Numbered from the stretch's first letter, positions 2,326 through 32,196 are shown. The stretch: DNA of 60,668 bases from Actinomycetota bacterium (GCA_039029335.1 JBCCGJ010000001.1:1-60668); one strand, 5' to 3'. Program-made: numbers and translations. Notes: a model not told the origin generated them from the sequence alone.

Positions 2326-5300
2326 CTACTCGTCGATGTTGTTGTTCAGTTCCGCGGCGATGGCCGGCAGATCCATCTCGACGAACCGGCCTTGGAAGTG
2401 GCCGCCGACCCGGCGGATCACCGACTGGCCCGTGTGGAACCGGCTGAAGCCGAGGGTGGGATCGTCGATCGCCCCCTCCGGCTGAATGGTGGCCGGTAGG
2501 TACACCACATCGACGTCCAGCGTTCGTGGTGCGTAGTTCCAGAACGCATTGTCGTTGATGCGGCCGATTCGATTCAGGGTGGTCCGTCTGCCGGTGGAGA
2601 CCGGCTCGGCCAGCCGCATGAGCGTGGTGTAGGCCTTGGCTCTGACACCGCGGACGATGGCGTTCGCTTTGGCCTTGGTGTCGACGTCGGCGATCTCGCC
2701 GCCCTCGTCGTCCAGGCGGGCCAGGCTCAGCTGGTCCCGGGTCATCCGGGCGATCCAGCTGGGTTTGGCGTCCGGCCGGTACTCCGGATACTCCCGGCTG
2801 AAGGCCTGGATCATAAACACGTTCGAGACTTCTTCGCCCTGGTCGAGCAGCTTGGCCGCCATCTCCCAGGCGATGGTGCCGCCCATGCAGAACCCGCCGA
2901 GGTGATAGGGGCCCTCCGGCTGATGCTCCCGCACCTCTGCCAGGTACAGGTCCGCCATGTCCTCGATGGTGGTCAGCGGGTCGGCGACACCGTCGATGCC
3001 CTGGGACTGGAACCCGACAACGTCGATGTCCTTGCGGAGATGGCGGGCCAGCCGCTCGTACGACAGGACCGTGCCGCCGTGGGCGTGGACCAGGTAGACC
3101 GGTGGACCGTCGGCCGGTCGGACCCGGACTTTGATCTTCGGTTTGGTGGACGGGACAACGATCTTGCGGGCCGACCCGTTGGTCGCCGCACCGGTGCCGT
3201 TGGAGGCGCTTCCGTTCGTCGAGCCGTTGGCGGCAGCGGTGGCTGCGGAACCGCCGGCTCCGCCTGCTGCAGGTGCCTCGTCCTCCGTCACGCCGACACC
3301 GTGGGCCTCGAGCAGCGCGGCCAGGTCGCCGAGCGTCGGGTACTCCAGCACCGTCTCGACCGGGAGCTCGATCCCGAACTGGCGATCGATCTGGGTGAAC
3401 ATCTTCACCGCCATCAGCGACGTGCCACCGAGGTCCGGGAACTGGTCCGTCGAGGCGATCTCATCGTGGCCCAGCAGTTGGTTCCAGATGGCCGCGACCT
3501 TGCGCTCGGTCGGGGTGAGCCCTTCACCGGAGACGGCATCGGCCGAGTCCTGGTGGGGTGTCGAGCGGGCACCGACCGGCGCTTTGCGGGCCAGGCCGAG
3601 GTGTTCAAGGGGAATAGGGGAGACGATGACCGCCGGAAGATCCGACCCCAGGAATCGGTCGAGCGCCTCGATGGCCGGGGCCGGCTCGACGCCGCTGACC
3701 GCGGCCTTGGCCTGACCGTCGGCGCTGAGCTGGTTTGTCATGCCGGTCCCGGTCCACGCCGGATAGGCGATGGCCCGCACCCGGCCGTGGTCCCTGGCCA
3801 ACGCCTGCTGGAACGCGGTCGCCGAGGAGTAGTCCACCTGGCCGGCTTCGGGGTGGGTGGCGGCGATCGAGGAGAACAGGACCAGCTCGGCGTCGTGGTG
3901 CTCGGCCGCGGTGAGGAGCTGTAGCGAGCCTTCGATCTTGGGGTACAGCACCGGGCGGGCGCTGTCCGGATCCTTCTGGGCCAGCAGTGCATTGTCCAGC
4001 ACACCACCCAGGTGGATGATCGTGTCCAGGCCGCCCATCTCCGACGCCGCACCGGCAAGCGCAGCGTCGACGTCGGCCTGGTCGCCGAACCGCAACTCTG
4101 CGGTGTGAGCTCGGCCGTCGTCGGCAAGCTCAGCAAGAGCTTGCTGGTGCTCGTCGCCGACCGGACGGGAGCTGGTCAACGTGACCGAGTCCCCCCGGGT
4201 GATGAAGTGCCGGGCGAGCTCGAGACCGATGCCGCCGAACCCACCGACGATGGCGATCTTCTTCGGCCTGATCGATGCGACGTCCTCCGGGGGCAGGGTG
4301 GTCCGCAGATACTGCGGGGTCCAGCGATGGTTGTTGGCCAGGACGTGGACGTCCCCGTCGGCGGCAAGCGCTCCGGTGAACAGCTCGGCTGTGGCGCCGG
4401 GGCCGACGTCGATCAGTCGGGCCGAGATGGTCTCCATCTCGGCGTTGATCACCCGGACCGGACCGAGGGCCAACGCCCCGGTGGCGGTGGCTCCGCCGTC
4501 CCGGTCGGCACCGGGGTCCTGGAGCGGGTCGATCAGGTTGTTGGTGACAACAACAACGTCGATGGTTTCGGCGTAGTCGAAGGCGGTCAGCGCCCGGCCG
4601 ATGGCCAGCAGCTCAACGGTCTGGTCCGTCGGATCGTCGGCTGCCCAGTGATACACGATCCGACCGGGCAGGCCGCCGCCGGACTCCATATTCGAGAGCA
4701 GTTCCTTGAACCCATCCGCCGTCCAGCGGCCGACAGGGGCGGTTGCCCCGGTCACCGGGCCGAGCGCATCGACCCAGCCGGTCACCGCGTCAGACCCGTT
4801 GCCGACGGCCAACGTTGCCGTCCCGCCCGGGGCTGCGGCGCCGAACGCCGGGGCGAAACTCTCGACGTGGATCCAGTCGCTCGGCGAGGGGGAGCGGAGG
4901 TCCAACCCGGACAGGCCGCCGCCGGTGGCGGCCTGGCGATTCGCCGCCTTGAACCAGTGGGCTTTGCCTCCGAACGGATAGCCGGGGAGGGACCGAAGCA
5001 GCGTGCCGCCCGCCCCGTCCCCAGCGGAAACGCCGCCGCTGATGGCGGGCAGACCCAGCACACCGAGCCAGGTCCGGGTGGAGACGGCGTGGATCAGGTC
5101 GTCGACCTGACCGGTCCGGGGCGGGAGGGTGGAGCGGACCTGATGGTGACCGCTCCGCTTGGGGTGAGCGGTGACCAGGCCGGTCAGCGTTGCCGCCGGT
5201 CCCAGTTCGAGGAACGCTCGGGTCGCAGAGCCAGCCGGGGCGGCGTCCAGGAGGGTGGCCAGCCCGTCGGAGAACCGCACCGCTGAGCGGACCTGGTCCG

Positions 5301-7665
5301 CCCAGTAGCGGGGGTTGTTGCGATCGTCGTCGCTGTACCAGGTACCGCTGATGTTGGAGATGATCGGGATCTTCGGTGCGGCCATGGTGATACCGGCCGC
5401 CGCCTCGGCAACCTTCTCCGCCGCCGGTTCCATCGACGCGGTGTGGAAGGCGTGGGAGGTCCGCAGCGCCCGGTAGGCGATGTCCCGCTGGTCAAGATCG
5501 GCGGTGAGCCGTTCGATGGCCTGGTCCGGTCCGGCCAGGACAAGCGAGGTCTTCCCGTTCTGCACCGCCAGCTCAACCCCATTGCCGAGCAGCGGTTTGA
5601 TGGTTTCCTCGTCCGCTTCGACGGCAACCATCGAGCCCGGCTCGCAGTCGAACATGGACTGGGCCCGGACCGAGACCAGCCGGATCGTGTGCTCCAGACT
5701 CATCACCTCGGCCACCGCCGCGGCGGTCAGCTCGCCGATGGAGTGGCCGAGCATCGCCACCGGGGTCACACCTTCGGCGAGCCACCACTGGGCCAGGGCG
5801 TACTCGATGGTGAACAGCGTCGGCTGGGTCAGCCACGTCTCGGCCAGCCGGGCCTGGGCCGCCTTGACCGTGTCCTCGTCCGGCTCGGCGGCCGGGTCCG
5901 CATAGCCGGGCCACATCTCGGCCCGGATGTCGGTGTCGAGGTGGGAGCGGAACAGCTCGGCGCAGCGGTCCACCGCGTCCCGGAACACGTCGGAGGTCCG
6001 ATAGAGCCCGAGGCCCATCCCGGCCCGCTGTGAACCCTGCCCGGTGAACAGGAACACCGCCTCCGCCGGTTTCTCGGCTGAAGCCGCTGGGGCGCCGGTC
6101 AGCTCGGCGACCAGCGGGCTGCCCTTCGTGCGGAGCGCGTCGATCAGCCCGGCCCGGTCCGCGCCGTGGACCATGCGCTTCTCCTGCTGCGGCGCCCGGG
6201 TGTCCAGCGAGTGCGCCACATCGAGCAACGACACGTCCGGGTTGTCCGTCAGGTACTCGGCCAGTTCGGCCGAAAGGTCGTCGATGGCACCCTTTGTCCG
6301 GCCGGTCAGCACCAGCGCAGGAACGACGTTCTCCGACGCCGGGCTGGGCGCGGCGGTCGGCTGGCCTTCCTCAACGATGATGTGGGCGTTCGTGCCGCCC
6401 ATACCGAGCGAGGTGATGCCCGCTCGGCGAGGTCGTTCGCCCCGAGGCCACGGCGTGTTGATCGCGGCAGGGACAAACGGAGTGGAGGCAAAGTCGATCT
6501 GGGGGTTCGGTTTCTCGAAGTGGAGGGTCTTCGGCAGGACCTCGTTCTCCAGGCTGAGCACCACCTTGATCAGCGACGCCATACCGGCTGCGGCGTCCAG
6601 GTGGCCCACGTTGCTCTTCACCGATCCGATCTTGGCGAACCCGGTCTTGTCGGTATCGGCCTGATAGGCCTGGGTCAGCGCGGCAACCTCGATGGGGTCA
6701 CCCAGGTAGGTGCCGGTGCCGTGGGCCTCCACGTAGTCGATGCTGTCGGCGGTGACGTCGGCTGCGCCCATGGCCTCGGTGATGGCCGCGGCCTGCATGC
6801 TGACGCTGGGGGCCGTGAAGTCCGACTTCTCGTTGCCGTCGTTGTTGACCGCCGAGCCGCGGATGATGGCCCGGATGTTGTCCCCGTCGGCCTCGGCCTT
6901 CACCGCCTGCTTCAGGATGACCCCGCCGACCCCGCTGCCGAAGATGGTGCCGGTGGCATCGGCGTCGAACGCCCGGCAGCGGCCGTCCCTGGTGAAGACA
7001 CTGGCCTCCTCGTACAGGTGACCGGTCTTCAACGGCGCCCGGACTGCGGCGGCGGCCACGAGTGTCATGTCCGACTCGCCCGAGAGCAGGCTCTGGATGG
7101 CGTAGTGGATGGCCACCAGCGAGGTTGAGCAGGCAGTCTGGATGGTCAGCGCCGGTCCCTGCAGCCCCAGCTTGTAGGAGAGCCGGGTGGCCAGAAAGTC
7201 CTTGTCCGAGCCCAGCAGCGTGGGCAGGTAGTCCCGGTAGAACTCCCCGGACAGACCGGTGTCAAGGAAGTAGGTGTTCATCGCCGTCCCGGCGAACACC
7301 CCGATGCGACCGTCGAACGTTGCCGGGTCGTAGCCGGCGTTCTCCAGGGCGAGCCAGCCGGTCTCCAGGAGCTGCCGCTGCTGAGGGTCGATACTCTTCG
7401 CCTCTTTCGGGGAGTAGCCGAAGAACTCGGCGTCGAACCGGTCGGCGTCGTCCAGCACCGGAGCGGCGGGGACGAAGTTCGGGTCGTCGAGGAGTTCCGG
7501 GTCAACACCGGACTCCTGCAGTTCCTCCCTGGTGAACCAGGTGACCCCGTCGGTGCCGTCAACCAGGTTCCGCCAGTACTCGTCAAGGTTCTTGGCCTTG
7601 GGGAACCTGCCTGCCATCCCGATGATGGCGATGTCGAAGTCGGAGTACTGACTCTCGGATTCCAT
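2326..7665 (-). CDS. Single-module type I polyketide synthase, KS-AT-KR-CP-TE
   Basis: 1779 aa.
- KS: TACSTS, Cys179 codon at 7129-7131; EAHGTGT; NVGHLD.
- AT: GQGSQ; GHSIGE with Ser642 at 5740-5742; HAFH, the malonyl-type motif.
- KR: structural half plus IVGGFGGIGLELARHF, K1243, FSSIAAT..DYSSAT, and VLDNAL resembling the B-type LDD motif.
- Carrier domain: FPDLGGTSLMAV, Ser1416 at 3418-3420.
- Linker: Gly/Ala/Asn/Ser-rich.
- Thioesterase: YHLGGFCMGG, Cys1593 at 2887-2889; VGGHF.
- No DH or ER domain is seen.
- Start: ATG preceded by an AGGAAA RBS. Confidence 0.95.
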   Translation of the reverse strand: MESESQYSDFDIAIIGMAGRFPKAKNLDEYWRNLVDGTDGVTWFTREELQESGVDPELLDDPNFVPAAPVLDDADRFDAEFFGYSPKEAKSIDPQQRQLLETGWLALENAGYDPATFDGRIGVFAGTAMNTYFLDTGLSGEFYRDYLPTLLGSDKDFLATRLSYKLGLQGPALTIQTACSTSLVAIHYAIQSLLSGESDMTLVAAAAVRAPLKTGHLYEEASVFTRDGRCRAFDADATGTIFGSGVGGVILKQAVKAEADGDNIRAIIRGSAVNNDGNEKSDFTAPSVSMQAAAITEAMGAADVTADSIDYVEAHGTGTYLGDPIEVAALTQAYQADTDKTGFAKIGSVKSNVGHLDAAAGMASLIKVVLSLENEVLPKTLHFEKPNPQIDFASTPFVPAAINTPWPRGERPRRAGITSLGMGGTNAHIIVEEGQPTAAPSPASENVVPALVLTGRTKGAIDDLSAELAEYLTDNPDVSLLDVAHSLDTRAPQQEKRMVHGADRAGLIDALRTKGSPLVAELTGAPAASAEKPAEAVFLFTGQGSQRAGMGLGLYRTSDVFRDAVDRCAELFRSHLDTDIRAEMWPGYADPAAEPDEDTVKAAQARLAETWLTQPTLFTIEYALAQWWLAEGVTPVAMLGHSIGELTAAAVAEVMSLEHTIRLVSVRAQSMFDCEPGSMVAVEADEETIKPLLGNGVELAVQNGKTSLVLAGPDQAIERLTADLDQRDIAYRALRTSHAFHTASMEPAAEKVAEAAAGITMAAPKIPIISNISGTWYSDDDRNNPRYWADQVRSAVRFSDGLATLLDAAPAGSATRAFLELGPAATLTGLVTAHPKRSGHHQVRSTLPPRTGQVDDLIHAVSTRTWLGVLGLPAISGGVSAGDGAGGTLLRSLPGYPFGGKAHWFKAANRQAATGGGLSGLDLRSPSPSDWIHVESFAPAFGAAAPGGTATLAVGNGSDAVTGWVDALGPVTGATAPVGRWTADGFKELLSNMESGGGLPGRIVYHWAADDPTDQTVELLAIGRALTAFDYAETIDVVVVTNNLIDPLQDPGADRDGGATATGALALGPVRVINAEMETISARLIDVGPGATAELFTGALAADGDVHVLANNHRWTPQYLRTTLPPEDVASIRPKKIAIVGGFGGIGLELARHFITRGDSVTLTSSRPVGDEHQQALAELADDGRAHTAELRFGDQADVDAALAGAASEMGGLDTIIHLGGVLDNALLAQKDPDSARPVLYPKIEGSLQLLTAAEHHDAELVLFSSIAATHPEAGQVDYSSATAFQQALARDHGRVRAIAYPAWTGTGMTNQLSADGQAKAAVSGVEPAPAIEALDRFLGSDLPAVIVSPIPLEHLGLARKAPVGARSTPHQDSADAVSGEGLTPTERKVAAIWNQLLGHDEIASTDQFPDLGGTSLMAVKMFTQIDRQFGIELPVETVLEYPTLGDLAALLEAHGVGVTEDEAPAAGGAGGSAATAAANGSTNGSASNGTGAATNGSARKIVVPSTKPKIKVRVRPADGPPVYLVHAHGGTVLSYERLARHLRKDIDVVGFQSQGIDGVADPLTTIEDMADLYLAEVREHQPEGPYHLGGFCMGGTIAWEMAAKLLDQGEEVSNVFMIQAFSREYPEYRPDAKPSWIARMTRDQLSLARLDDEGGEIADVDTKAKANAIVRGVRAKAYTTLMRLAEPVSTGRRTTLNRIGRINDNAFWNYAPRTLDVDVVYLPATIQPEGAIDDPTLGFSRFHTGQSVIRRVGGHFQGRFVEMDLPAIAAELNNNIDE

Positions 7666-7739: not shown

Positions 7740-10700
7740 TCAGCCCCGCCTGGTCCGGCGGGCCGGCATCTGTCGACGCTGGGCGCCTCGGGACCGGGAC
7801 TCTTCCTGCCGCTGGCCTTCGTCCTGACCGGTGAGCCGCCGGATGGTCGGCCGGTCGAACAGGTCGACCAGCTTGAAATCGGGAACGGACTCGGTGGCCT
7901 GGATGGCCGAGATGAGTTCAACCGCCAGGAGGGAGGTGCCGCCGAACTCGAAGAAGTTGTCGTCGATGCCAAGGGTCTTGTAACCGAGGACCTTGCGCCA
8001 CACTTCCACAAGCTGGATCTGGACGTCGTTCTCCGGTGGCGCCAGTGGCGTGTCCTCGGGGCGGTTCTTCTCGAACTGCTCCCGGATCAGCTCCATGATC
8101 GCCGCGCCGGTCCGGCGGGTCATGGCGATCGTCTCGGACCGTTCGGAGTTGACGGGGACCGCGGCGGTGTTGCGGGCGGCCCCGTCATCGACCGCGTCCG
8201 GCTCCACCGGGACAAACACCAGCCCGGCGGCGGCGTCCGCGGCCATCGTGTAGGTGTCGCCGTCGAAGGCGGCGACGCCGTCCGTGACCAGCCCGTCCAG
8301 GAACTTGCGGACGGGTTCGTTGCGGTCACTGCGGAGGTAGGGGAGGGCAACGGTGGCCGCTCCGGCTTCGGATGCCCGCTCGCCGAGGGTGCGGATCATC
8401 TGATGCTCGACACCCCGGCCGAGGGCCCGACAGCTCATGAGAAAGCTGTCGGCGGTGAGCGTGCCGTCGGCCCCGGGGTTGTCGACCGAATGGGTCATCA
8501 ACCCGACGATGCCGTAGTCCCCGAATCGGTCGGAGACCTTCACCGTGGTGCCGCCGGCGTCGCCGGCCAGCAGTGATCGCATCTCCGCCTCGGTCCGGCG
8601 AACGGTTGTGGTGTTGAACTGGTTGGTCCGCTGGGTCATCTGGGCGGCCCGGGGGACGGACTCCTCGCCGAGGGGTTGGACGTCGATCGACAGTTCCAGC
8701 TGGGCGATGAAGTCGGCGAAGTCACCGCTGCCGGACTGCAGCTCCTGGCGGCGGGCCTCCTCGGAGTACATCTTGGCCCGCTTCTCGTCCTCGGCGGTTA
8801 GCTGTCCGAACTGGTCCAGCTCCCACAGGTGCCGGGCGAACCGGTCGTCGAGGCGATCGCGGTCCTCGACGCAGATGGTCAGAACCTCGGGGGCCCGGGA
8901 CCGCACTTCGCCGCACTCCAGCGGGGAGTCGTCGAGGAAGACGGCGGAGTCCGAACCGATGCCGATCTGGGTTGCGATGTCCCGGATGTTCTGCGACTTC
9001 GGGTCCCAGTTGATCCGGTGGGCGGTGATGTCGTCCCAGGTGAGGATCATGTCCGGCACGGCGGCGAACGCCTCGCGGACGATGGCCTCGTCGTTCTTGG
9101 AGGCGAGGGCCACCACCATGCCGCGGCCGATGGCGTCCTTGGCCAGCTGCTGCACCACCCGGGCCGGTTCGTCGATGACCAGACCGTCGACGCCGTCCTC
9201 GCCGACAACGCCTTTCCAGACGGTGTTGTCGCAGTCCAGGACCAGCAGCTTGCGGGGCGTCCTGGTTGACGCCAGGAGGAACCGGACGAGGTGGGTGCCG
9301 AGGGCGGCGAAGAAGTCCGGGGTGTAGGGCACATGGCCGAGGCGGTCGGCGACCGGATCCCGGAGTTCGGTGATGCCGTAGTCGTGGATGATCTGCTGGG
9401 CGTCCAGGACAACCGTGTTGAGTTCACTGAGGGCCGCGGTCAGCCGCCGGTGTTCGGCCATGACCGCCGGGGTCTCCTCCGAAGGCGGGCACACCACAAA
9501 CAGCGACGGGCGGTTTGTCCGGCCGAGATGGGAGCCGACCGCATCGATGAAGAGGTCCACATTCTTGGCCAGCGCGGCCAGCTGCTCTGCGTCCTCTGCG
9601 GAGGCGGTGCTGGCCGGGGCCTGGTAGTCCTTGGCCTTGGCGTAGATGGTGTAGAGGCCGGAGCCGACCAGCAGGTTCTCCTCGTCCGAGGTGCACTCGT
9701 AACCGTGTGCCTCCAGCAGCTCGGTCACGTCGTCGATGCCGTGGGGTTCCTCCCAGTGGACCTCGACGATGAGCTGGCGGATCTTCGGCCAGTCCTCGTC
9801 CCGGATACCCCGCAGGATGCCCCGCTCGCTCTTCTCGGCATCGACCTTGAGGAGATCGATCTCGGTCAGGTTGTGGCGATCGATGACTTCACCCAGGGAG
9901 ACCAGCTCACAGACCTGGGCCACGGCTTCGACCCGGTCGGCCATGAACTCCTCTACAACCTCGGCAACCAGCTCCTCGGAGTAGTTGCCGCTGGCCCGGA
10001 CCGTGTTCTCCACGATGGCCAGGATGGACTCCCGCTCCGTCTCGACCTCCGGGTCGAACGTGGAGAACACCGAGGACTTGGGATAGAAGGTCAGTTCCGC
10101 CTCGCCGTTGTGCTCGGCCATGCCGGCCTGGACCAGGTGGGACTCGTGCACGTGGGCCGCCATGTTGGCGGCGAGGATCGGAGCCATGACCGGTGACGGC
10201 TCGACGGCCACCACCTTCACGTTCTTGGCCCGGCTGGCGGCGAACATGGCGAACATACCCATGTTGGCCCCCACGTCGACCACGGTTGCCCCGTCGCCGA
10301 TGTCGATCCCGTGCCGGGCGTAGACGGTGTCGACAAAGATCTCGTTGTAGAGGTAATCCGTCTCGTACTGGTTGAGCTGGGCGACAGCCTGACCGGTGGG
10401 CAGGACCGTGGTGTCGAACTCGTCCGGAATCTCGGTGGTCTCCCGCTCCTTCATCCAGTCGTCGACCTTGACCAGCCCGACGTGGACGTCGGCGTCGGCG
10501 TTGAACGCATCCCCGCCGGTCAGCAGTTCCTGGAACAGCTGGCCGTAGCCCGCGGGCCGCAGCGCTATGGAGTTGCCGAACTCGGCGGACCAGTAGCGGA
10601 TGATCTGCTCAAGCGGATCGGTGGAGAAGGTGGCGGCAACACCGATGGTCGCGGTGTCGGCCGGAGCACCGAAGCGCTGCAGATGCACGCCCCGGAGGAA

Positions 10701-11435
10701 GGCGATGGTGTTGCCCGCCTCGTCGGCGACGTCAACGTCAGCGGTGAGCGTGGAGGGTGTGCGATCGACGTTGGTTGCGGTGATCGTCCCCGCCGCGGCC
10801 GTCACGTCGGCCACCCCGGCAGGGAAGCCGATCAGCTCGATCCGGCCGAGCAGGAACGCCGCGTCGAATCCGGCGGCCGCGCCCAGCACATGGAACGCAC
10901 CGTCCACGGCTGCGGTCAGCACGTTGGCCCCACCCTGCTCGACGACGTCCGCACCGATGCCCCACTGGGCGGAGAGCGCGCTGTCGGCGATGACGGCCGA
11001 GCTGATCACCTTGAGCGCATCGCCGTAGTTGTTGCCGACCGCGTCGAGCCCGCCGTAGATCTCGTCCGCGGAGACGGTTCGTCCGCCGCCGAGGTCGGCC
11101 TCGGCGAGCGGGGACGGCGCTTCGCTGGTGGGTTTTGCCGAGGCGAGGACGGACCCCTCCGCGTCGGTGAGGCTGATCGGGTTGTCGGCGACCACCCGGG
11201 CGACAAAGCCGCCGGCCTCGTCGGCCCGGATCATCGACTGGAAATCGACGCCGCCGAGGTGTGGCTCCGGCGAATCGGCCAGCATCTCCAGCACGGTGGC
11301 GATGCCGGGGACGATGACAACGCCGTTGACGACGTGGGCCGCCAGCAGGGACCAGGGAGTGGACGCCGCAGGACTCTGGCTGACGCCGGTCGAGAAGTCG
11401 ACCTCTCTGAGGTTGTCCGCGGAACTATCGGTCAT
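7740..11435 (-). CDS. Multidomain FkbH-type loading protein: PKS-DH-like hot-dog domain / FkbM-family methyltransferase / FkbH (HAD-IIIC phosphatase-acyltransferase) / carrier protein
   Basis: The longest ORF starts at a TTG at 11465. I prefer the ATG at 11435, preceded by GGAGGG.
- DH-like domain: HxxxGxxxxP motif HVVNGVVIVP, nt 11307-11336.
- FkbM-type SAM methyltransferase: VVDVGANMGMFAMFAA...VVAVEPSP.
- FkbH core: LLVLDCDNTVWKGVVGEDG (DxDxT at about 9222-9236), ...ASKND..., DDSPLE, with a GNAT-like C-terminal half (FGDYGIVG).
- Carrier domain: FFEFGGTSLLAV, Ser codon at 7932-7934.
- C-terminus: an Arg-rich tail. Confidence 0.9.
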   Translation of the reverse strand: MTDSSADNLREVDFSTGVSQSPAASTPWSLLAAHVVNGVVIVPGIATVLEMLADSPEPHLGGVDFQSMIRADEAGGFVARVVADNPISLTDAEGSVLASAKPTSEAPSPLAEADLGGGRTVSADEIYGGLDAVGNNYGDALKVISSAVIADSALSAQWGIGADVVEQGGANVLTAAVDGAFHVLGAAAGFDAAFLLGRIELIGFPAGVADVTAAAGTITATNVDRTPSTLTADVDVADEAGNTIAFLRGVHLQRFGAPADTATIGVAATFSTDPLEQIIRYWSAEFGNSIALRPAGYGQLFQELLTGGDAFNADADVHVGLVKVDDWMKERETTEIPDEFDTTVLPTGQAVAQLNQYETDYLYNEIFVDTVYARHGIDIGDGATVVDVGANMGMFAMFAASRAKNVKVVAVEPSPVMAPILAANMAAHVHESHLVQAGMAEHNGEAELTFYPKSSVFSTFDPEVETERESILAIVENTVRASGNYSEELVAEVVEEFMADRVEAVAQVCELVSLGEVIDRHNLTEIDLLKVDAEKSERGILRGIRDEDWPKIRQLIVEVHWEEPHGIDDVTELLEAHGYECTSDEENLLVGSGLYTIYAKAKDYQAPASTASAEDAEQLAALAKNVDLFIDAVGSHLGRTNRPSLFVVCPPSEETPAVMAEHRRLTAALSELNTVVLDAQQIIHDYGITELRDPVADRLGHVPYTPDFFAALGTHLVRFLLASTRTPRKLLVLDCDNTVWKGVVGEDGVDGLVIDEPARVVQQLAKDAIGRGMVVALASKNDEAIVREAFAAVPDMILTWDDITAHRINWDPKSQNIRDIATQIGIGSDSAVFLDDSPLECGEVRSRAPEVLTICVEDRDRLDDRFARHLWELDQFGQLTAEDEKRAKMYSEEARRQELQSGSGDFADFIAQLELSIDVQPLGEESVPRAAQMTQRTNQFNTTTVRRTEAEMRSLLAGDAGGTTVKVSDRFGDYGIVGLMTHSVDNPGADGTLTADSFLMSCRALGRGVEHQMIRTLGERASEAGAATVALPYLRSDRNEPVRKFLDGLVTDGVAAFDGDTYTMAADAAAGLVFVPVEPDAVDDGAARNTAAVPVNSERSETIAMTRRTGAAIMELIREQFEKNRPEDTPLAPPENDVQIQLVEVWRKVLGYKTLGIDDNFFEFGGTSLLAVELISAIQATESVPDFKLVDLFDRPTIRRLTGQDEGQRQEESRSRGAQRRQMPARRTRRG

Positions 11436-11659
11436 GATGCCCTCCATGGTTGGAGCCGAGATCAAACGTCTGCCCGACCTGACCGTTCTTGTCAGGACTT
11501 ACGCCTCGTGCCCCGTATTCTATTGACGAGCTTCTCGTGTCCACCGGAGCCGGCGTGTCGCCGAGGGCCGTGGTGAGAGGTTCGACAGGTTGAGACTGCG
11601 TCGACCTTCGGCCGTTACCCGATTCTCTCGGTGGTCCCGCCCCGCAAAGTCGATAGTCA

Positions 11660-13006
11660 ATGGTGTCAGGAGGGCGAGTGCAGCCACAACCAACACGGGG
11701 GAAAATAGACCGACTTAGGTCAAATCGCCTTGTGCGCGGCGTTGGTATGCAGGCCGGTGGCGCGGCGATTGCCCAGCTGGTTGTGGTGGCGGTCACACCT
11801 CTGCTCACCCGCCTGTACTCCGAGGAGGACTTCGGGGCCTTCGAGGTGTATGCGGCGATGCTGACGATGGTGGCGGTTCTTTCTACGGGGCGGTTGTTCG
11901 AGGCGATCGTCGTTCCGGCCGACGAAGGCGAGGGGCGGGCGGTTTTCGGTGCGGGGCTTCGGGTCCTGCTGGGGTTTGCCGGGGCGGTCCTTCTCATCGT
12001 CGCTGTGGGAAGGAACACCATCGCGGGCTGGTTCGGAACCCCGGACCTGGCCACGCTGCTCTGGCTTGCTCCGATCGGCATTTTGGCCCTCGGCATGAGG
12101 CAGCTGTACCAGGGCTGGGCAGTGCGGGCCAAGGACTACCGGGCCCTTGCGGAGAACAACCTGAGCCGGGGCATTGCGGCATCGGTGGTCAACGTTGGAG
12201 CGGGCGTCGTGGGACTCGGCGGTCTTGGCCTCGCGCTCGGCCACGGTGCCGGGTTCGGATTCGCCTCGTGGCGGCTGGGTAAGCGGCTCAAGGTGCCCCC
12301 GGCCACCAAGGATGTCCGGACGGTCGACGCACTGCGGGAGTACCGCCGGTTCCCCCTGCTGTCCGGACCGAGCGCCATGCTGAACGCCGTCTCCCGGGGC
12401 ATGCCGCCGCTGGCCCTTGCCGCAATCTTCAGTGCAACCGTCGTCGGGTTCTACGGCCTCATCACCCGAGCGCTCGGTCAGCCGCTGCTGCTGTTCCAGG
12501 AGGCCACCACCCGGGTCTTCTCCGGAGAGGCGGCCCAGCTCCGCCGGGACGGTCGGTCCGGACTGGTCCGGTTGGCGTTCAACTTCGTCAGGTCCCAGGC
12601 GGTCATCGGTGCGTTGATCGTCGGGGTTGCCTTTGTCCTGGCACCGACAATGATCCCCATCGTCTTCGGCGAGCGCTGGGCGGAGTCTGCGGACTACCTC
12701 CGCATCATGGCGCCACTGTTCTATATACGTACGATGGCGGGGCCGCTGATGGCCATCTTCTCGATCCTCGGCAGGCAACAAACCCATCTCCTGGTCGAGG
12801 TCAGTCGATTTGTGATGGTGGGAACCGGTTTTGTCCTGGCATATGTGCTGGACTTGGACGTGCTGATGACCCTCGGAGTGTTCACCGCCGCCGCCTCACT
12901 CGGGCAACTGTTCGGCGCATCCCTGGCCTTCTATGAGATGGGCCGCTGGGATCGTGCGCCGCTGCCACCAACCACCGACGGCGGGACACCCGGAATCGCC
13001 GAGTGA
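11660..13006 (+). CDS. MOP-superfamily polysaccharide flippase (Wzx-like)
   Basis: About 12 predicted hydrophobic segments. The N-terminus LRSNRLVRGVGMQAGGAAIAQLVVVAVTPLLTRLYSEEDFG matches the Polysacc_synt N-terminal pattern (..RL..PedFG). The start is ambiguous: an ATG at 11660, or a GTG at 11678 three nt after AGGAGGG. The TGA stop overlaps the next gene's GTG as GTGA at 13003-13006. Confidence 0.75.
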   Translation: MVSGGRVQPQPTRGKIDRLRSNRLVRGVGMQAGGAAIAQLVVVAVTPLLTRLYSEEDFGAFEVYAAMLTMVAVLSTGRLFEAIVVPADEGEGRAVFGAGLRVLLGFAGAVLLIVAVGRNTIAGWFGTPDLATLLWLAPIGILALGMRQLYQGWAVRAKDYRALAENNLSRGIAASVVNVGAGVVGLGGLGLALGHGAGFGFASWRLGKRLKVPPATKDVRTVDALREYRRFPLLSGPSAMLNAVSRGMPPLALAAIFSATVVGFYGLITRALGQPLLLFQEATTRVFSGEAAQLRRDGRSGLVRLAFNFVRSQAVIGALIVGVAFVLAPTMIPIVFGERWAESADYLRIMAPLFYIRTMAGPLMAIFSILGRQQTHLLVEVSRFVMVGTGFVLAYVLDLDVLMTLGVFTAAASLGQLFGASLAFYEMGRWDRAPLPPTTDGGTPGIAE

Positions 13007-14814
13007 TCCGCCGAGCGCTGACGCAGTCCGTTGTCGCGCTGGTGATCGCCGCCCTGGCATCGTTGGTCGTCGCCGCTGCCGGTGGCCCGGCCCTCGCAGC
13101 CGGGGCCGGCGTTCCGGCGGTGAATCGGAGCGGCGTTCCGGCGGTGACTTGGAGCGGCGTCCCGGTGGTGAATCGGAGCGGCGTTCCGGCGGTGAATCGG
13201 AGCGGCGTCCCGGCGGTGAATCGGAGCGGCGTTCCGCCGCGGGTCGCCTGCCCGCTGTTTGTGCCGGCCGACGTCCGGGTTAACGATCGGTTCGGGACGG
13301 CCATCGGCATCGACGGTGACGACCTCGCCGTCGGGTCGTGGCTGGCCGACGAGCAGGGGCTGCGGGACGCGGGCTCGGTCACCGTGTTCACCATCGGACC
13401 GGACGGTGCGGCGTCGGAGGTGCAGCGGCTGGTGGCCGAACCACCGGAGCCCCGGGCCAACTTCGGGTTCAGCGTCGACCTCGACGGGGACGTTCTGGCG
13501 GTTGGTGCCGTTGCCGCCTCGACCGAGCGGGGCGGCGACACCGTTACAGAAGCCGGAGCGGTCCACGTGTTCGAACGGGCCGGGGCGGACCAACCATGGG
13601 TCTGGTCGGCCCGGTTGGTGGCGGCCGACGCCGAGTCGGACGACCGGTTCGGCTACAGCCTGGAGGTCGACGCCGCATCGGGCACGATCATCGTCGGCGC
13701 CCACACCGATGACGTCGAGCTGCCCGACGCCGACACTGCGGGCGACGCCGCACCGCTTGTGGACGCCGGTTCGGCCTACCTGTTCGAGCGGACGGAGACC
13801 GGCAGCTGGACCCAGACCAAAAAGCTGGTCGACCCGACGGCCCGGCCCGGGGATCGGGCGGGCCACGACGTCGCCATCTCCGGCCGATGGATGATCGTCG
13901 GTCACCACCTCGACGATCAGGTCGGCAATCGAACCGTCAACAATGCGGGTGGTGCCCTCCTCTATGAACGAACCGACGACGGGATCGTCGGCCCGCTCGA
14001 GCTGACCGGCAGTGCGCCGATGGCCCGGGACCGGGCCGGCATCGCCGTGGACGTCGACGATGACCTCCTGGCCATGACCGGCTGGTCCCAGAACCCGGGC
14101 GATCGCAGCGTCCTGTGGGTGTTCCGTCACGGGGATGCCGGCTGGCGGGAGGAGGTCAGGATCGAGCTGGCGGAGCCGATCGTCGGCGAGGCCGACCGTG
14201 ACAGCAACGGCGACAGCAACGGTGTCGAGGGCAGTGTCGACAGTGACAGCAACGGTGGCCGCACACCGACCGCACGGACCGCACCGGCCACACAGTTCGG
14301 CCGACACCTGGCGGTGGCGAACGGGATCGTGATTGTCGGTGCATCGGCGGACGGGGTCGGTGCACCGGGCGGGGGAGCCGTCCACATCTTCGGCGCACCG
14401 GCGGGGGAGTGGGGTCGGCTCGGCCGGATCGCTCCGGACGACGTCGGCGAGAATGCCCAGGCCGGCATCTCGGTCGGGCTGTCCGAGCGGTGGGCGGCGA
14501 TGGGGGCGGAACGGGCCGAGCTCGGTCTGCGCAACAGTGGCGGCGCGTGTGTCCTCCCGCTTGCCGGGTTGCTCGACGACGCCGCAATCGAGGTGGACCC
14601 GTCGGTCACCGTTGTGCTCGACGCGGGTGATCGGGCGCCGGCCCCTGCGGAACCGCTCGGTGCCGGTCCCCTTCAGCGCCTCGGCGGCGATCGGTCGAAC
14701 AACACCGTGGCGGTCGGGGTCATCGCCGCCGGAGTGGCGGCTGCGGTCATGGCGCTCGCCGCCGTCGTCCTGGTGATCAGATCCCGCGGTCGAGGGGACC
14801 CCCGACTGCCGTGA
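13003..14814 (+). CDS. Secreted, C-terminally membrane-anchored FG-GAP-like beta-propeller protein with an N-terminal octapeptide repeat
   Basis: 603 aa.
- Signal peptide: MIRRALTQSVVALVIAALASLVVAAAGGPALAAGAG.
- Repeat: (GVPAVNRS)x5.
- Propeller blades: repeated DxFGxxxxxDGDxLAVGA....AGAVxVF.
- C-terminal TM helix: VAVGVIAAGVAAAVMALAAVVLVI followed by RSRGRG. Confidence 0.85.
   Translation: MIRRALTQSVVALVIAALASLVVAAAGGPALAAGAGVPAVNRSGVPAVTWSGVPVVNRSGVPAVNRSGVPAVNRSGVPPRVACPLFVPADVRVNDRFGTAIGIDGDDLAVGSWLADEQGLRDAGSVTVFTIGPDGAASEVQRLVAEPPEPRANFGFSVDLDGDVLAVGAVAASTERGGDTVTEAGAVHVFERAGADQPWVWSARLVAADAESDDRFGYSLEVDAASGTIIVGAHTDDVELPDADTAGDAAPLVDAGSAYLFERTETGSWTQTKKLVDPTARPGDRAGHDVAISGRWMIVGHHLDDQVGNRTVNNAGGALLYERTDDGIVGPLELTGSAPMARDRAGIAVDVDDDLLAMTGWSQNPGDRSVLWVFRHGDAGWREEVRIELAEPIVGEADRDSNGDSNGVEGSVDSDSNGGRTPTARTAPATQFGRHLAVANGIVIVGASADGVGAPGGGAVHIFGAPAGEWGRLGRIAPDDVGENAQAGISVGLSERWAAMGAERAELGLRNSGGACVLPLAGLLDDAAIEVDPSVTVVLDAGDRAPAPAEPLGAGPLQRLGGDRSNNTVAVGVIAAGVAAAVMALAAVVLVIRSRGRGDPRLP
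13108..13240 (+). repeat. In-frame 24-bp tandem repeat, about 5.5 copies (consensus GGCGTTCCGGCGGTGAATCGGAGC), encoding GVPAVNRS units
   Basis: Units start at 13108, 13132, 13156, 13180, 13204 and 13228 (partial). There are 0-3 substitutions per unit. Confidence 0.9.
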
Positions 14815-15493
14815 CGTCGGCCTTCACCAGGCCGACCCACGCTGCAGGGAGCGACGGATCGTGATCGCCGCCTGCACCGATCCGATCGAGCCGGACCGCC
14901 GCACCGTCGAACGTGAACGCGTTGGTCAGTCCCGGCCACCACAGCCGCAGGTTCTTCAGGTCTGCTCGCATACCCTCCCCGGTCCATTTGATCCACGCCT
15001 CCTTGAACACCCAGCACTGCAGGATGTCGTCGAGGTCGTCCCCGGCCAGCTGTTCGAGCTCCCGGGGATGGAGCGCCGGGGTGAGCGACGATGCCGTGAG
15101 GCCGTCGTGGATCTCGTGGCACTCGATGTCGACACCGACCGGGCCGGTGCGGTCCACGGCCAACACCATGAGCGGTCCGGAGGCCGACAGGTTGAAGTGC
15201 ACGGTGGGGCCGGGCTCGGCCCCGACATTGTTGTCGTCCGATTCCGCTGTGGTCGCAAGAATCGGTTTGAGGTTGCCGGCCGTTGTCAGCGCAACGGCCG
15301 CCGGGTCGATTCCCAACTCCTCGCCGAGGCGGCGGCGCAGCGCCGACTGTCGGCGGAGGTAGGAGTCCGCCGTAGCTGCATCGACAAAGCGGGCGTGCCT
15401 CGCCCGATCCTCGTCCGGCAGGAGGGAGCGGTCCGGCTCACAGGCTGCAAGCGGCAGCACATCGACCACCGTGTCCCCGTGATGGATCCGCAC
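14777..15493 (-). CDS. Sfp-type 4'-phosphopantetheinyl transferase
   Basis: GVDIE and WVFKEAWIKWTGEG (W/FxxKEAxxK) motifs. The longest ORF reaches 15577. However, the GTG at 15493-15491 overlaps the upstream gene's TAG (15495-15493) as TAGTG, so I prefer it as the coupled start. The 3' end overlaps the convergent gene by 38 nt. Confidence 0.85.
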   Translation of the reverse strand: MRIHHGDTVVDVLPLAACEPDRSLLPDEDRARHARFVDAATADSYLRRQSALRRRLGEELGIDPAAVALTTAGNLKPILATTAESDDNNVGAEPGPTVHFNLSASGPLMVLAVDRTGPVGVDIECHEIHDGLTASSLTPALHPRELEQLAGDDLDDILQCWVFKEAWIKWTGEGMRADLKNLRLWWPGLTNAFTFDGAAVRLDRIGAGGDHDPSLPAAWVGLVKADVTAVGGPLDRGI

Positions 15494-16629
15494 TACCGGC
15501 CGACCGTCCCCGCTGCGTCTTCGACGATGTTCATGACTTTGAGCCCGAATCGATCCCAGGTCATCGTGGCCGCCCATCGCCGGGCCTCGGCGCTTCGGTC
15601 CGCCCAGGCGGCCGGATCGCGGTCCAGCGTCTGGACCGTGCGGACGAACCCGTCAACGTCCCCCTCACCTACCAGCAGGCCGTCGGGACCAACGCTCTCC
15701 GGCATCGACGCCAGGTTCGTGACCACCGCGGGCACCCCCCTGGCCATCGACTCCAGGGCCACACTGCAGAAGCTCTCCACCTTGCTTGCGCTGACCACGG
15801 CGACGGTCCGGTCCAGCTCGGCGGCCAGGCCGGGCCGGTCGAGGAACCCGAGCAGCTCGATCGAGTCACGGACTCCCAACGACTCGGCAAGGTCGAGCTG
15901 GGGTTGAAACGCCGCAGCCTCCCGGCCGCTGCAGATGGCCAGGGTCCACGATCCGGGCTCGGCCCGGTTGAGGTCGGCCAGGACCCGAACCAGGGTGTCG
16001 TTGTCCTTGTGGGGTTGCGGGCTGGTGATTGCCAGCAGCCTGCCTCGCCGCTTGTCGTGGTCGGCAACCGGCGCATCCACCGGCAGCGCCCACCCGTCGG
16101 CCAGTCCGACATGGGCCACCGACGGATTGTTGATCGAGAGGTTGGGGTACCGACCGATCGCCGCGTCGAGCAGAAAGTTCGACTCGAAGATGTTCGCCGC
16201 GGCGCCGGTCAGCGCAGCCTTGGCCGCCCGGTCCCTGATCAATTCCGCCGGTCGCTGCTTCCAACCCCGGGCCCCGCTGCCCGGCTGGTAGCGGCTGAGG
16301 TTGATGTGCAGCACAACCTGCGGACCCGCCGAGCCCCGGGTCATCCGGTTCTGGGAGACCACCACCCGGTTCGGATCCGGGCCGAGCGCCTCATCGATGA
16401 GGGCCTGCTCCTGGGTGAAGCTCCTGATGCCACTCCCGGCGGCCAACTCCCGCACCTCGATCGCCGGATTCGCCTCTTTGATCATTGAGCAAACCTGCCC
16501 ATGGGAGGTGAGGGCGATCAGCTTCAGATCGCTGCCGTGACCCCGTCCGCCCGCCGCCAACGCCTCCCAAACCATGGCGCCACCACCGGGTCGTGCGGCG
16601 AGCGCATTAAACAAAACGGTCTGGGTCAT
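15493..16629 (-). CDS. GT4-family (GT-B fold) glycosyltransferase
   Basis: C-terminal VVSASKVESFCSVALESMARGVPAVVT (ExFxxxxxE, the EX7E motif). I prefer the ATG at 16629 (MTQTVLFNAL...) to the longest ORF, which reaches 16758. Confidence 0.85.
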   Translation of the reverse strand: MTQTVLFNALAARPGGGAMVWEALAAGGRGHGSDLKLIALTSHGQVCSMIKEANPAIEVRELAAGSGIRSFTQEQALIDEALGPDPNRVVVSQNRMTRGSAGPQVVLHINLSRYQPGSGARGWKQRPAELIRDRAAKAALTGAAANIFESNFLLDAAIGRYPNLSINNPSVAHVGLADGWALPVDAPVADHDKRRGRLLAITSPQPHKDNDTLVRVLADLNRAEPGSWTLAICSGREAAAFQPQLDLAESLGVRDSIELLGFLDRPGLAAELDRTVAVVSASKVESFCSVALESMARGVPAVVTNLASMPESVGPDGLLVGEGDVDGFVRTVQTLDRDPAAWADRSAEARRWAATMTWDRFGLKVMNIVEDAAGTVGR

Positions 16630-16848
16630 GACACTCCGTAAACGGGTTGTGAACGTAAAAACCCCCCGAAAAGCGGGGTTCGGCCGGTGGGAATCGGGGC
16701 GTGGTTCGCGCTTGCATGGACTGTAGGTCACGGCTGCAACCATCGGCTGCGACCACACCGATCCTCCGGCTCATCCAAGCGCCGACGCCGACCGGTTCAA
16801 ACTGGTCAAAATCCCGCCTGGGAAGCGGGGTAATGCCGCCGAACCTTC

Positions 16849-19800
16849 TTGGCAGGGAGTATTGCCCGTTGCGGCCTTTTTGGCCGATTCGGCGCGTTAC
16901 TCTCCCATACCGTGACTCTACTCGGCGGAAGTTCGCGTGCCCTTTTGCGTTCGCTACTGGTGTTGGCGATGCTTGCGTCCGTTTTGGTGGTCACGACACC
17001 GCGACCGGCGGCCGCCCATGCAGGAGACGACTGCGCGCTGTTCTTCCCCGCCGACGTGGCCGAGAACGACTGGTTCGGCTCCTCGGTCGGCATCGACGGG
17101 GACACCGCGGTCATCACCGCGTGGCTCGGCGACGAACCGACCGGCCCGATCAACGCCGGCGCGGCCTATGTCTATGACCGCCAGCCCGACGGCAGCTGGC
17201 TCGAGGGTCAGAAGCTGCTCCCCTCGGTGCAGGGGGCGTCCTTCAACTTCGGCTTCAGCGCCGACATCGACGGGGACATCATCGCCATCGGCGCCTGGCA
17301 CGAGACGGTCGGTGCCGCCGCCCAGGCGGGCGCCGTCTACATCTTCGAGCGTACGACCCCCACCGGCCCCTGGGCCGAGACGGCACGGCTTACCGCATCG
17401 GACGCCGACCCGGCCGACGACCTGGGCTACAACCTCGAGGTCGACGCCGCCACCTCGTCGGTCATCGTCGGTGCCCAGCAGGACGATGAGGGCGGTAGCA
17501 ACGCCGGTGCGGCGTACGTGTTCCGCAAGACGAACGGCGTGTGGGCCCAGGAGGCCAAGCTGCTCGACCCGAACGCAAACGTGAACGACCGGGCAGGCAA
17601 CGACGTTGCCATCGACGGCGACTGGGCGGTCGTCGGCCACCACCTGGACGACATCGGCATCAACGGTCCACAGACCAACGCCGGCGGTGCGCTGCTGTAC
17701 AAGCGGACCGGCACCACCTGGGGCGCCCCGGTCGAGCTGGACGTCAGCAACCCCGAGCCGATCAAGAACCGGGCGGGCTACGGCGTGGACATCGACGGGG
17801 ACCTGCTGGTCATGACCAGCTACCACGACTTCGACACCCAGATCCCCCAGGGTTGGATCTTCCGGGAGAACAACGGCGTCTGGACCGAGGAACAGCAGAT
17901 CTTCCCCTACCCGTCGGTCAACGCCGGTGATCATCCGTTCGCTGCTCCGAACAACGACGACGGCACCCACTTCGGCCGCCACGTCGAGTTGGACAACGGG
18001 GTCATCGCCGTGGGTTCGTCCTACGACTCCTCGCTCGACTTCGAGCGGGGCGCCACCCACTACTGGACGCAGGACACCAACGGGCTGTGGAAGGAAACGG
18101 CCAGGATCGATCCGGAAGGCAACGCTCGCTACTTCCACGCCGGCATCGCGGTCGGCCTCTCCGACACCCACGCCATCATCGGCGCTGAGAAGGGCAACGC
18201 AAACGACGACGGCATCCACGAACCGTTCGCCACCAGCCCGACCGAGATCTTCAACGCCGGCCTGGCCTGCATCGGCGACCTGTCCGACATCCTGGACGGC
18301 ACCCACTCCCCGAACCCGTTCTACGAGGTCTACGCCTCGGTCGGTGATGCAACCGTTGCCGAGGGGAACCCCGGTGACAGCAATCAGGCCTCGGTCGACG
18401 TGACCCTCTCCCAGGCTCCGCCGTCGGAAGTGACCGTCGAGATCTCGACCAGCGACGGCAGCGCCACCCTGGCCGACTCCGACTACACCCAGGTGACCAG
18501 CCAGGTCGTCACCTTCGCCGCCGGTGAGACCACCCAGACCGTCCTGTTCGACGTGACGGGGGACTTCAACACCGAGTCGAACGAGACGTTCCTGGTCGAG
18601 CTGGCCAATCCGACAACCGGTGTACTGATCGACGACGGTCTCGGCCAGGTGACCATCACCGACGAGGACGTCCTGGAGCTGACGGTCGGTGATGCAACCG
18701 TGACCGAGGGCGACAGCGGCACCACGGCCGCTCTGGTGGACGTCTCACTGCCGTTCCCCCCGACCGTTGTTGTGACGGCGGACCTGGCCACCCTCGACGG
18801 CTCGGCCACCACAGCCGACAATGACTACACCCCATACAGCGACACGCTCACCTTCGGTGTCGGTGAGCAGACCAAGCAGGTCTCGATCGACGTCATCGGT
18901 GACGGCTTCATCGAGGGTGACGAGACCTTCACCCTCGAGGTCACCGGCACGTCGGCAGGTCTCTCCATCGCAGACGGAAGCGGCCTGATCACGATCACCG
19001 GCGACGACGCCAACTCGGTGTCCATCGGCGACACCTCGGTCACCGAAGGAAACGCCGGGTCCACCGTCACCGCAACCGTTGATGTGACCCTGGCCTCGCC
19101 TGCATCCGTCCCGTTCGACGTCACGGTGTCCTCGGCGGACGGCACCGCAACCCTGGCCGACGGGGACTACCAGGCGTCAACGCAGACCGTTTCGTTTGCC
19201 ATCGGTGAGGACACCAAGTCCGTCTCCTTCACCGTGAACGGTGACGACACCCCCGAGGGCGACGAGGTCTTCACTGCCGAGCTCTCCAACCCCACCGCTG
19301 GTGTGACCATCAACGACGGCAGCGGGAACATCACGATCACAAACGACGACGCACCGAGCGTCTCGATCGGCGACGCCGAGACCCTTGAAGGGGCCCTCGG
19401 TGGCACCACCCCGGTCTCGGTCGAGGTCAGCCTGTCCTCTCCGGCCGTTGCCCCGGTATCCGTCACCGTCGACACGGCGGACGGCACCGCAACCACCGCG
19501 GACTCCGACTACACCGCGGTCACCGCCCAGGTGGTCAGCTTCGCCATCGGTGAGCAGACCAAGACCGTCACCGTCGACGTTCTCGGTGATGACACGGCCG
19601 AGTCGAACGAGGACCTCACGCTGGTTGCCTCCGCCCCGACCGGCGGTCTGACCATTGCGCACGGGACCGGCACGATCGACATCTTCGACGATGACTCCGT
19701 TGCGATCGTGGTCGGCGACGCCACCGTCGTCGAGGGCGCGGACGGCACCACGGACACCGTGACGGTCGACGTCACGCTCACCCAGCCGGCCGTCGGCCAG

Positions 19801-32151: not shown

Positions 32152-32196
32152 GGCGGCGCCCGGCGATGGACCAGAAGAAGAAGGCGGAGGGCACGA

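Follow-up and report, generated by a model that had tools for sequence, protein, structure and literature searches.

What does a protein named simply 'FkbM family methyltransferase' do beside a one-module polyketide synthase (PKS) in a polysaccharide gene cluster? The question is raised by a gene in a stretch of 60,668 nucleotides from an Actinomycetota bacterium (GCA_039029335.1 JBCCGJ010000001.1:1-60668), the whole of which is called the window here. The gene lies on the minus strand in a single open reading frame, 7740..11465, with a strong coding signal (GC content of third codon positions, GC3, 0.89; of second positions, GC2, 0.44). Starting from the ATG at 11435, it encodes a protein of 1231 residues, here termed the loader. 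Its length and start are identical to those of P0001, the NCBI protein of this metagenome-assembled genome (MAG), whose public name is the one quoted above and nothing more. The order of its parts is a dehydratase (DH), the first part of an FkbH N-terminal domain, an FkbM methyltransferase, the remainder of the N-terminal domain, a HAD core, a GNAT-like part, a carrier domain and a basic tail. The methyltransferase interrupts the FkbH N-terminal domain. We consider it probable, at roughly 0.7, that the loader makes a 2-methoxyacrylyl starter, from which the PKS next to it builds a 3-hydroxy-4-methoxypent-4-enoyl product.

A methyltransferase inside the FkbH N-terminal domain

The loader begins with a double-hotdog dehydratase of PKS type at residues 1-262 (10650..11435; all loader features are on the minus strand). 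The PS-DH profile (PF14765) covers residues 107-260 with 31.1 bits against a cut-off of 23.7. The domain carries His34 in HxxxGxxxxP, GNxYG at 134-138 and the pair Asp178/His182 as the DxxxQ/H motif. The methyltransferase was recognised by PF05050 at residues 387-580 (53.5 bits, cut-off 22.7) and by TIGR01444 at residues 384-560 (74.2 bits, cut-off 37.7), both FkbM profiles. The FkbH catalytic region spans residues 728-1070 (8226..9254). It consists of a HAD-IIIC core with Asp734 and Asp736 in DCDNT, and a GNAT-like acyltransferase part with Cys1002 in the SCRALGRG motif at residue 1001. The FkbH profile TIGR01686 matched residues 728-1047 with 291.2 bits (cut-off 146.65), and TIGR01681 scored 57.7 bits (cut-off 35.75). 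The acyl or peptidyl carrier domain, residues 1131-1204 (7824..8045), was identified by PP-binding (PF00550; residues 1141-1202, 40 bits) and by matches to carrier domains in the PDB; its phosphopantetheine site is Ser1168 in the GGTS motif at 1165. The protein ends with a basic tail, residues 1205-1231 (7743..7823, ...SRSRGAQRRQMPARRTRRG), which is a candidate docking element. The motifs quoted in a preliminary description of this DNA were all found in place (HVVNGVVIVP at residue 34, VDVGANMG at 386 and DCDNT at 734). The same profile searches gave no ketoreductase (KR) or SDR match in the 1231 residues, and no match of any kind for residues 261-383 and 581-727, which are the segments proposed as one split domain.

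The preliminary description had regarded the methyltransferase as an insertion rather than an end-to-end fusion. Pairwise, multiple and profile-to-structure alignments and the predicted topology all bear this out. In BLASTP, each of four methyltransferase-free FkbH proteins (P0011-P0014) aligned with the loader in two collinear pieces, with E values from 1e-9 to 1e-11 for the first half. P0015 gave the same two-piece pattern. In P0011, loader residues 264-327 (Q264-327, where Q marks positions in the query) correspond to residues 3-67 (E 1.8e-10) and Q629-1184 to residues 75-638 (E 5e-108). The flanks are separated by 7 residues in P0011 versus about 300 in the loader. The MAFFT alignment placed about 280 extra residues of the methyltransferase-containing proteins between the strand V(R/K)xxDW and the helix F(V/I)DA(V/L), which are neighbours in the other proteins. 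A profile of 18 methyltransferase-free FkbH proteins aligned without a break across the insertion point to residues 48-379 of PDB 3slr (BF1531), with an E value of 2.2e-49. According to the preliminary description, its proposal would fail if residues of about 270-340 and 625-735 turned out not to belong together as the halves of a single domain. What was found is that the flanks are contiguous both in the methyltransferase-free homologues and in 3slr.

The same arrangement appeared when Q255-1110 was modelled with AlphaFold from 105 sequences (mean predicted local distance difference test score, pLDDT, 92.4; predicted template modelling score, pTM, 0.76). The order of elements in the model is b1-a-b2-a-b3, the methyltransferase, a long helix, b4-a-b5 with further helices, and the HAD core. 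The strands of the first half are at model residues 8-14, 36-40 and 63-69 with a pLDDT of 94-98. The elements of the second half are helix 357-385, strand 390-395, helix 402-417 and strand 421-424. In Foldseek, the best PDB match of the model was again 3slr (E 5.6e-14 over 284 columns), which was also the best PDB match by sequence (E 1.9e-25). The methyltransferase part resembled class-I methyltransferases and the C-terminal FkbH part resembled GNAT acetyltransferases. By BLASTP, MAFFT and AlphaFold, the first half of the N-terminal domain was set at residues 263-328 (10452..10649), which form b1-a-b2-a-b3 and end with VKVDDW. The inserted O-methyltransferase module, linkers included, covers residues 329-610 (9606..10451), with the S-adenosylmethionine-binding motif VDVGANMG at 386. 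The second half covers residues 611-727 (9255..9605) and runs, according to the alignments and the AlphaFold model, from a long helix through b4 (SLFVVCPP), a helix and b5 to helices leading toward the HAD core. Two boundaries of the preliminary description had to be moved. The insert, thought to be about 260 residues long, measures about 280 residues (Q329-610), and the first half, put at about 270-340, lies at Q262-328.

No paper stating the nested FkbH/FkbM topology was found in the literature searched, and the nesting of a methyltransferase inside the FkbH N-terminal domain may so far have gone undescribed in publications. In that case, the nesting would explain how the methyltransferase is held beside the carrier-bound C3 unit. 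The loop after b3 is a site at which FkbH tolerates a whole extra domain, and this could be useful for engineering. The FkbM module of the loader is also homologous to modules embedded in two nonribosomal peptide synthetases (NRPSs) with an adenylation (A) domain, P0016 and P0017, both from metagenomes. They share 32-34% identity with Q345-605, including the N-terminal extension LPxGxxxAxLNxYETxYLYxEIF. Therefore, the same cassette appears to have been inserted into different assembly-line scaffolds.

Catalytic residues and relatives of the loader

The catalytic residues of the loader are well conserved. Dehydratase His34 is kept in all 45 homologues compared at that position and Asp178 in 52 of 52, while position 182 varies between Q (44 homologues) and H (8 homologues). 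Both Asp residues of the FkbH DxD motif are invariant in the 105-sequence alignment. Cys1002 is invariant in an alignment of 13 sequences, and at least 90% of the 105 have it. The dehydratase fold is complete. The AlphaFold model of residues 1-262 reached a pLDDT of 89.9 and a pTM of 0.88, and its top Foldseek matches were all PKS dehydratase domains (5hst, 5il6, 5bp3 and CurJ; MlnB, RzxB, MAS-like and Cur), with TM scores of about 0.70 and E values of about 1e-15.

The architecture had been called unusual in the preliminary description, a view that did not hold. In a profile search, about 70 clusters at 90% identity shared the Pfam set of the loader. Where a source is named, Cyanobacteria, Chloroflexota, Bacteroidota, Verrucomicrobiota and Actinomycetota are among those represented. 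An exhaustive phmmer search was run against 1.84 billion representatives at 50% identity. Among the best 150 matches considered, more than 100 cover Q255-1110 in a single stretch, that is, both flanks, the methyltransferase and FkbH. As far as these alignments go, the nested topology is common to the whole family. Most members are stand-alone proteins of 1230-1350 residues. Others are the N-terminal part of megasynthases of 3400-6800 residues, and others again, without the dehydratase, start NRPSs. In tblastn searches against plasmids, only partial matches were obtained (FkbM plus FkbH without a dehydratase, or FkbH alone). Public names such as 'FkbM family methyltransferase' or 'HAD-IIIC phosphatase' thus hide a complete starter module. 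Such modules can be searched for by a split match to the FkbH N-terminal domain that flanks an FkbM match. The closest relatives of the loader are from Acidimicrobiales and Actinomycetota MAGs. A link to the methoxy-acyl amino sugars of mycobacterial glycolipids was considered and dropped, given these relatives and the lack of anything tying the locus to mycobacteria.

The module type is known. The loader is a stand-alone new example, coupled to a cis-acyltransferase (cis-AT) synthase, of the described type composed of dehydratase, O-methyltransferase (OMT), FkbH and acyl carrier protein (ACP). This set is found in the first module of the phormidolide PKS and in module 1 of OocJ (oocydin/haterumalide), for which the literature proposes a 2-methoxyacrylyl starter made from 1,3-bisphosphoglycerate (PMC6174933). 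Those two modules stand at the N-terminus of a trans-AT megasynthase in a macrolide pathway. In contrast, the loader is a separate protein of 1231 residues that would feed a single cis-AT module with a Cys-type thioesterase (TE), and it is encoded within a Wzx/Wzy polysaccharide cluster of an Acidimicrobiia-like MAG. P0167, a megasynthase of Musicola (Dickeya) paradisiaca Ech703, resembles OocJ and has the same nested methyltransferase as the loader. Its order is DH-[FkbH::FkbM]-ACP-KS-...-ECH-ACP-KS, where KS is a ketosynthase. Its N-terminus matches the Q255-1110 query in one stretch at model positions 11-825 in phmmer, and it is collinear with Q233-1076 at 34% identity in BLASTP. The architecture fits the account of OocJ modules 1-2 given by Meoded et al. 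(PMC6174933).

A second group of relatives has no dehydratase. P0140 has the order [FkbH::FkbM]-PCP-sulfotransferase-C-A-PCP-E (PCP, peptidyl carrier protein; C, condensation; E, epimerisation domain), which is the architecture of the BslA/DysB module type. Its alignment with the loader is collinear over Q254-1198, with 34.5% identity. The modules of BslA (suomilide/banyaside) and DysB (dysinosin), OMT-FkbH-PCP-ST (ST, sulfotransferase), are like the loader in the nested FkbH::FkbM unit and the carrier. Unlike the loader, they lack the dehydratase, contain a fused sulfotransferase, are followed by a condensation domain, and keep and sulfate the 3-hydroxyl. The product of the BslA/DysB-type module is 2-O-methylglyceric acid 3-O-sulfate (PMC13122637; PMC6520454). 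Since the P0140 type, without the dehydratase, gives this compound, the nested methyltransferase is expected to act on O-2, and the 3-hydroxyl to survive where the dehydratase is absent.

The remaining relatives differ more widely. The stand-alone glyceryl-ACP synthases of the FkbH/OzmB type and 3slr, the N-terminal part of BF1531, share the N-terminal alpha/beta domain and the HAD-IIIC core with the loader, and full-length FkbH proteins also have the Cys-containing C-terminal part. Unlike in the loader, their N-terminal domain is uninterrupted, and they carry no fused dehydratase, methyltransferase or carrier. In the DH-KR-FkbH-ACP modules for lactate starters, such as BryA of bryostatin, a dehydratase N-terminal to FkbH-ACP is thought to dehydrate the glyceryl unit. 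These modules, which yield lactyl, contain a KR but lack a methyltransferase. For the loader the reverse is true, with a methyltransferase and no KR. A lactate-type function of the loader was rejected because the KR is missing.

Proposed starter chemistry and competing explanations

The partner of the loader is a one-module PKS of 1779 residues, KS-AT-KR-ACP-TE by Pfam, which starts 74 nucleotides downstream (2326..7665, minus strand). The KS has the Cys/His/His triad of an elongating enzyme, the AT has GHSIGE and the malonyl-type HAFH, and the KR has LDN. The nucleophile position of the TE is Cys, not Ser (GFCMG, PKS residues 1591-1595). This Cys is kept in the equivalent PKSs of two related loci, L003 and L007, and the nearest TE in the PDB, 4zxh (AB3403), has Cys there too (GGWCFGG). 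With a beta-hydroxyacyl substrate, a Cys-type TE could favour acyl transfer or lactone formation over plain hydrolysis. A KS-first gene follows the loader directly in seven of the seven loci read (the window, L001, L002, L003, L005, L006 and L007). The preliminary description had suggested docking between the basic loader tail and the acidic PKS N-terminus. The tail pattern RGxxRR...R gives a net charge of at least +4 in the last 30 residues of 91 of 106 stand-alone loaders. The seven downstream KS proteins examined all have 10-14 residues before the KS core, with a net charge from -2 to -5; in the window, the KS N-terminus is encoded by 7633-7665 (minus strand). The two ends are consistent with a minimal electrostatic docking pair, a candidate suggested by their charges.

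The following mechanism is proposed. The HAD core and the Cys-containing GNAT-like part would load the carrier domain of the loader itself with a glyceryl unit that is drawn from 1,3-bisphosphoglycerate and dephosphorylated on the way. The FkbM-type methyltransferase, nested in the loop after strand b3, would methylate the 2-hydroxyl. Presumably after this methylation, the N-terminal double-hotdog dehydratase would remove the 3-hydroxyl to give 2-methoxyacrylyl-S-ACP. The starter would then be passed to KS-AT(malonyl)-KR-ACP-TE, possibly by docking of the basic tail on the short acidic KS N-terminus. The PKS would add one C2 unit and reduce the beta-keto group, and the 3-hydroxy-4-methoxypent-4-enoyl chain would be released or transferred by the Cys-nucleophile TE. 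The acyl group may end on a surface glycan, as suggested by neighbouring genes for Wzx/Wzy proteins, glycosyltransferases, a PIG-L deacetylase and a sulfotransferase. The conversion of a 1,3-bisphosphoglycerate-derived glyceryl into a dehydrated and O-methylated 2-methoxyacrylyl unit had already been put forward in the preliminary description. It gains support from the phormidolide and oocydin precedent (PMC6174933) and from the conserved His and Asp of the dehydratase. By analogy with the known systems, the 3-hydroxyl of the carrier-bound glyceryl would be eliminated where the dehydratase is present and retained where it is absent. This yields a simple product rule, in which a dehydratase would predict a methoxyvinyl terminus and its absence 2-O-methylglycerate.

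Several points weigh against this proposal. The query has GNNYGDAL in place of the family motif GNxYGPxF. For phormidolide and oocydin, the 2-methoxyacrylyl assignment is itself, in the text consulted, a proposal from product structure and domain content (PMC6174933). P0167 is set beside OocJ by description, its identity with OocJ being suggested by organism, annotation and architecture. The placement of b1-b3 and b4-b5 in one sheet is taken from homology to the contiguous domain rather than from a contact map. The decoration of a glycan is suggested by gene context alone. In addition, the loader family may serve more than one chemistry, given the FkbK/J/I-like neighbours of two loaders. In L008 (13872-16226) and L010 (13875-16173), the loader is followed by genes for a 3-hydroxyacyl-CoA dehydrogenase, a free ACP and an acyl-CoA dehydrogenase, which make up an FkbK/FkbJ/FkbI set.

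The most serious competitor is a dehydratase that is structural or silent. In that case, 2-O-methylglyceryl-ACP would be delivered, and its extension by the PKS would give a 3,5-dihydroxy-4-methoxypentanoyl group, perhaps sulfated by the sulfotransferase of the cluster. The altered GNNYGDAL motif fits this picture. The relatives without a dehydratase make 2-O-methylglycerate 3-sulfate, and a sulfotransferase gene is present at 32152-33108, with another near the PKS in L003. The one in the window is 21 kb away among glycan genes. Products assigned to the dehydratase-containing type bear a methoxyvinyl group and not a methoxy-diol, and haterumalide B and biselide B keep the methoxyvinyl group (PMC6174933). 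Above all, His34 and Asp178 are strictly kept across the 45-52 homologues in a complete fold, which argues for selection on catalysis. Therefore, a silent dehydratase is disfavoured, and we regard it as unlikely.

A 2-methoxyacrylyl starter would also be wrong if the nested FkbM acted elsewhere, for example on a sugar hydroxyl of the glycan, and the loader supplied an enolpyruvyl- or pyruvoyl-ACP starter. Sugar O-methylation is the activity of many FkbM-family enzymes, PF05575, the profile of RfbT-type sugar methyltransferases, gives a weak match (E 0.005), and the locus is a polysaccharide cluster. The nesting, on the other hand, persists in more than 100 representatives, in secondary-metabolite and glycan contexts alike. 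Both described module types with the nested unit give 2-O-methylated C3 units, and a lipid-linked glycan would be hard to reach for a methyltransferase nested in another domain. Because the nesting is maintained outside glycan contexts, a sugar-methylating FkbM is disfavoured and appears quite improbable.

The dehydratase could, third, serve the next module rather than the starter, so that the two proteins together would be a split module. The 3-hydroxyacyl intermediate would then be dehydrated to a 2-enoyl product and the end derived from 2-O-methylglyceryl left intact. The downstream PKS does have a KR and no dehydratase, and split modules are known in trans-AT systems, with the OocJKL module as an example (PMC6174933). 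In every member that has one, including the P0167 megasynthase, whose next module introduces a beta-branch, the dehydratase nevertheless forms the N-terminal end of the loader, and its presence tracks the fate of the starter 3-hydroxyl. In L002 and L009, the next module is KS-AT-ACP without a KR, leaving no beta-hydroxyl to remove. Since some partner modules lack a KR, this assignment is disfavoured, and its likelihood is very low.

The least plausible explanation, that the loader belongs to a methoxymalonyl-ACP extender pathway as an FkbG/H/I/J/K analogue, takes some colour from the L008 and L010 loaders directly beside their FkbK/J/I-like sets, but neither an FkbI-like acyl-CoA dehydrogenase nor an FkbK-like 3-hydroxyacyl-CoA dehydrogenase gene was found in the cluster (window 1-33108) or elsewhere in the window, the downstream AT has the malonyl-type HAFH, the loader has its own carrier domain and the KS comes directly next, so that with FkbI/K-like genes absent this route was rejected for the window.

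The polysaccharide locus

The unusual aspect of this system is its setting, a two-protein PKS with a Cys-type TE in a surface-polysaccharide locus of an uncultured actinobacterium. The glycan genes of the window encode a formyltransferase-like protein, an initiating sugar transferase, a PIG-L de-N-acetylase, a Wzx-like flippase and a Wzy-like polymerase. Two GT4 glycosyltransferases, the sulfotransferase, FG-GAP proteins and a giant Calx-beta protein also belong to the locus. A phosphopantetheinyl transferase (PPTase) of the Sfp type is encoded at 14777..15577 on the minus strand (PF01648 ACPS, 38.5 bits) and is needed to activate the two carrier domains. Its gene adjoins the loader in L003, L004, L005 and L008. 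The arrangement of the locus is conserved in related Acidimicrobiales MAGs (L003, L004).

Comparable surroundings were seen on two unrelated metagenomic contigs. On one (L007:854-19492), the loader and a KS-AT-KR-ACP-TE (Cys) lie within a locus of Wza/Wzc, Bac_transf, DegT aminotransferase and GNAT genes. On the other (L010:12-22525), a variant of the loader cassette occurs with three GT4 genes, a flippase and polysaccharide deacetylases.

It is conceivable, though we hold it to be doubtful, that the conserved cassette of loader, Cys-TE one-module PKS and PPTase in Wzx/Wzy or Wza/Wzc loci of unrelated bacteria serves to attach an enol-ether acyl group made by the PKS to surface glycans. This group would be the acid-labile 3-hydroxy-4-methoxypent-4-enoyl, and the Cys-type TE would transfer it to an amino sugar, for example after PIG-L de-N-acetylation. 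If true, a surface polysaccharide would carry a polyketide-derived and chemically reactive decoration. More generally, a minimal two-protein PKS in a glycan locus suggests that glycans may be decorated with small acyl groups of polyketide origin, a topic that has been little explored.

Beyond the locus, at 33-60 kb, the window contains housekeeping genes without a connection to it (TetR, a ThDP enzyme, CobT, an oxidoreductase, a kinase and an acyl-CoA ligase). Two repeat proteins are encoded on the plus strand within the locus. An FG-GAP protein is located at 12937-14814, and the 5' part of its gene contains a 24-bp tandem repeat at 13107-13236 (5.4 copies, 90% matches), which encodes a repeated peptide of 8 residues. 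The Calx-beta giant (16834-28701) has 3955 residues with about 30 Calx-beta repeats and N-terminal FG-GAP repeats, and lies next to this FG-GAP protein. In L004, too, the loader locus has a Calx-beta giant beside it.

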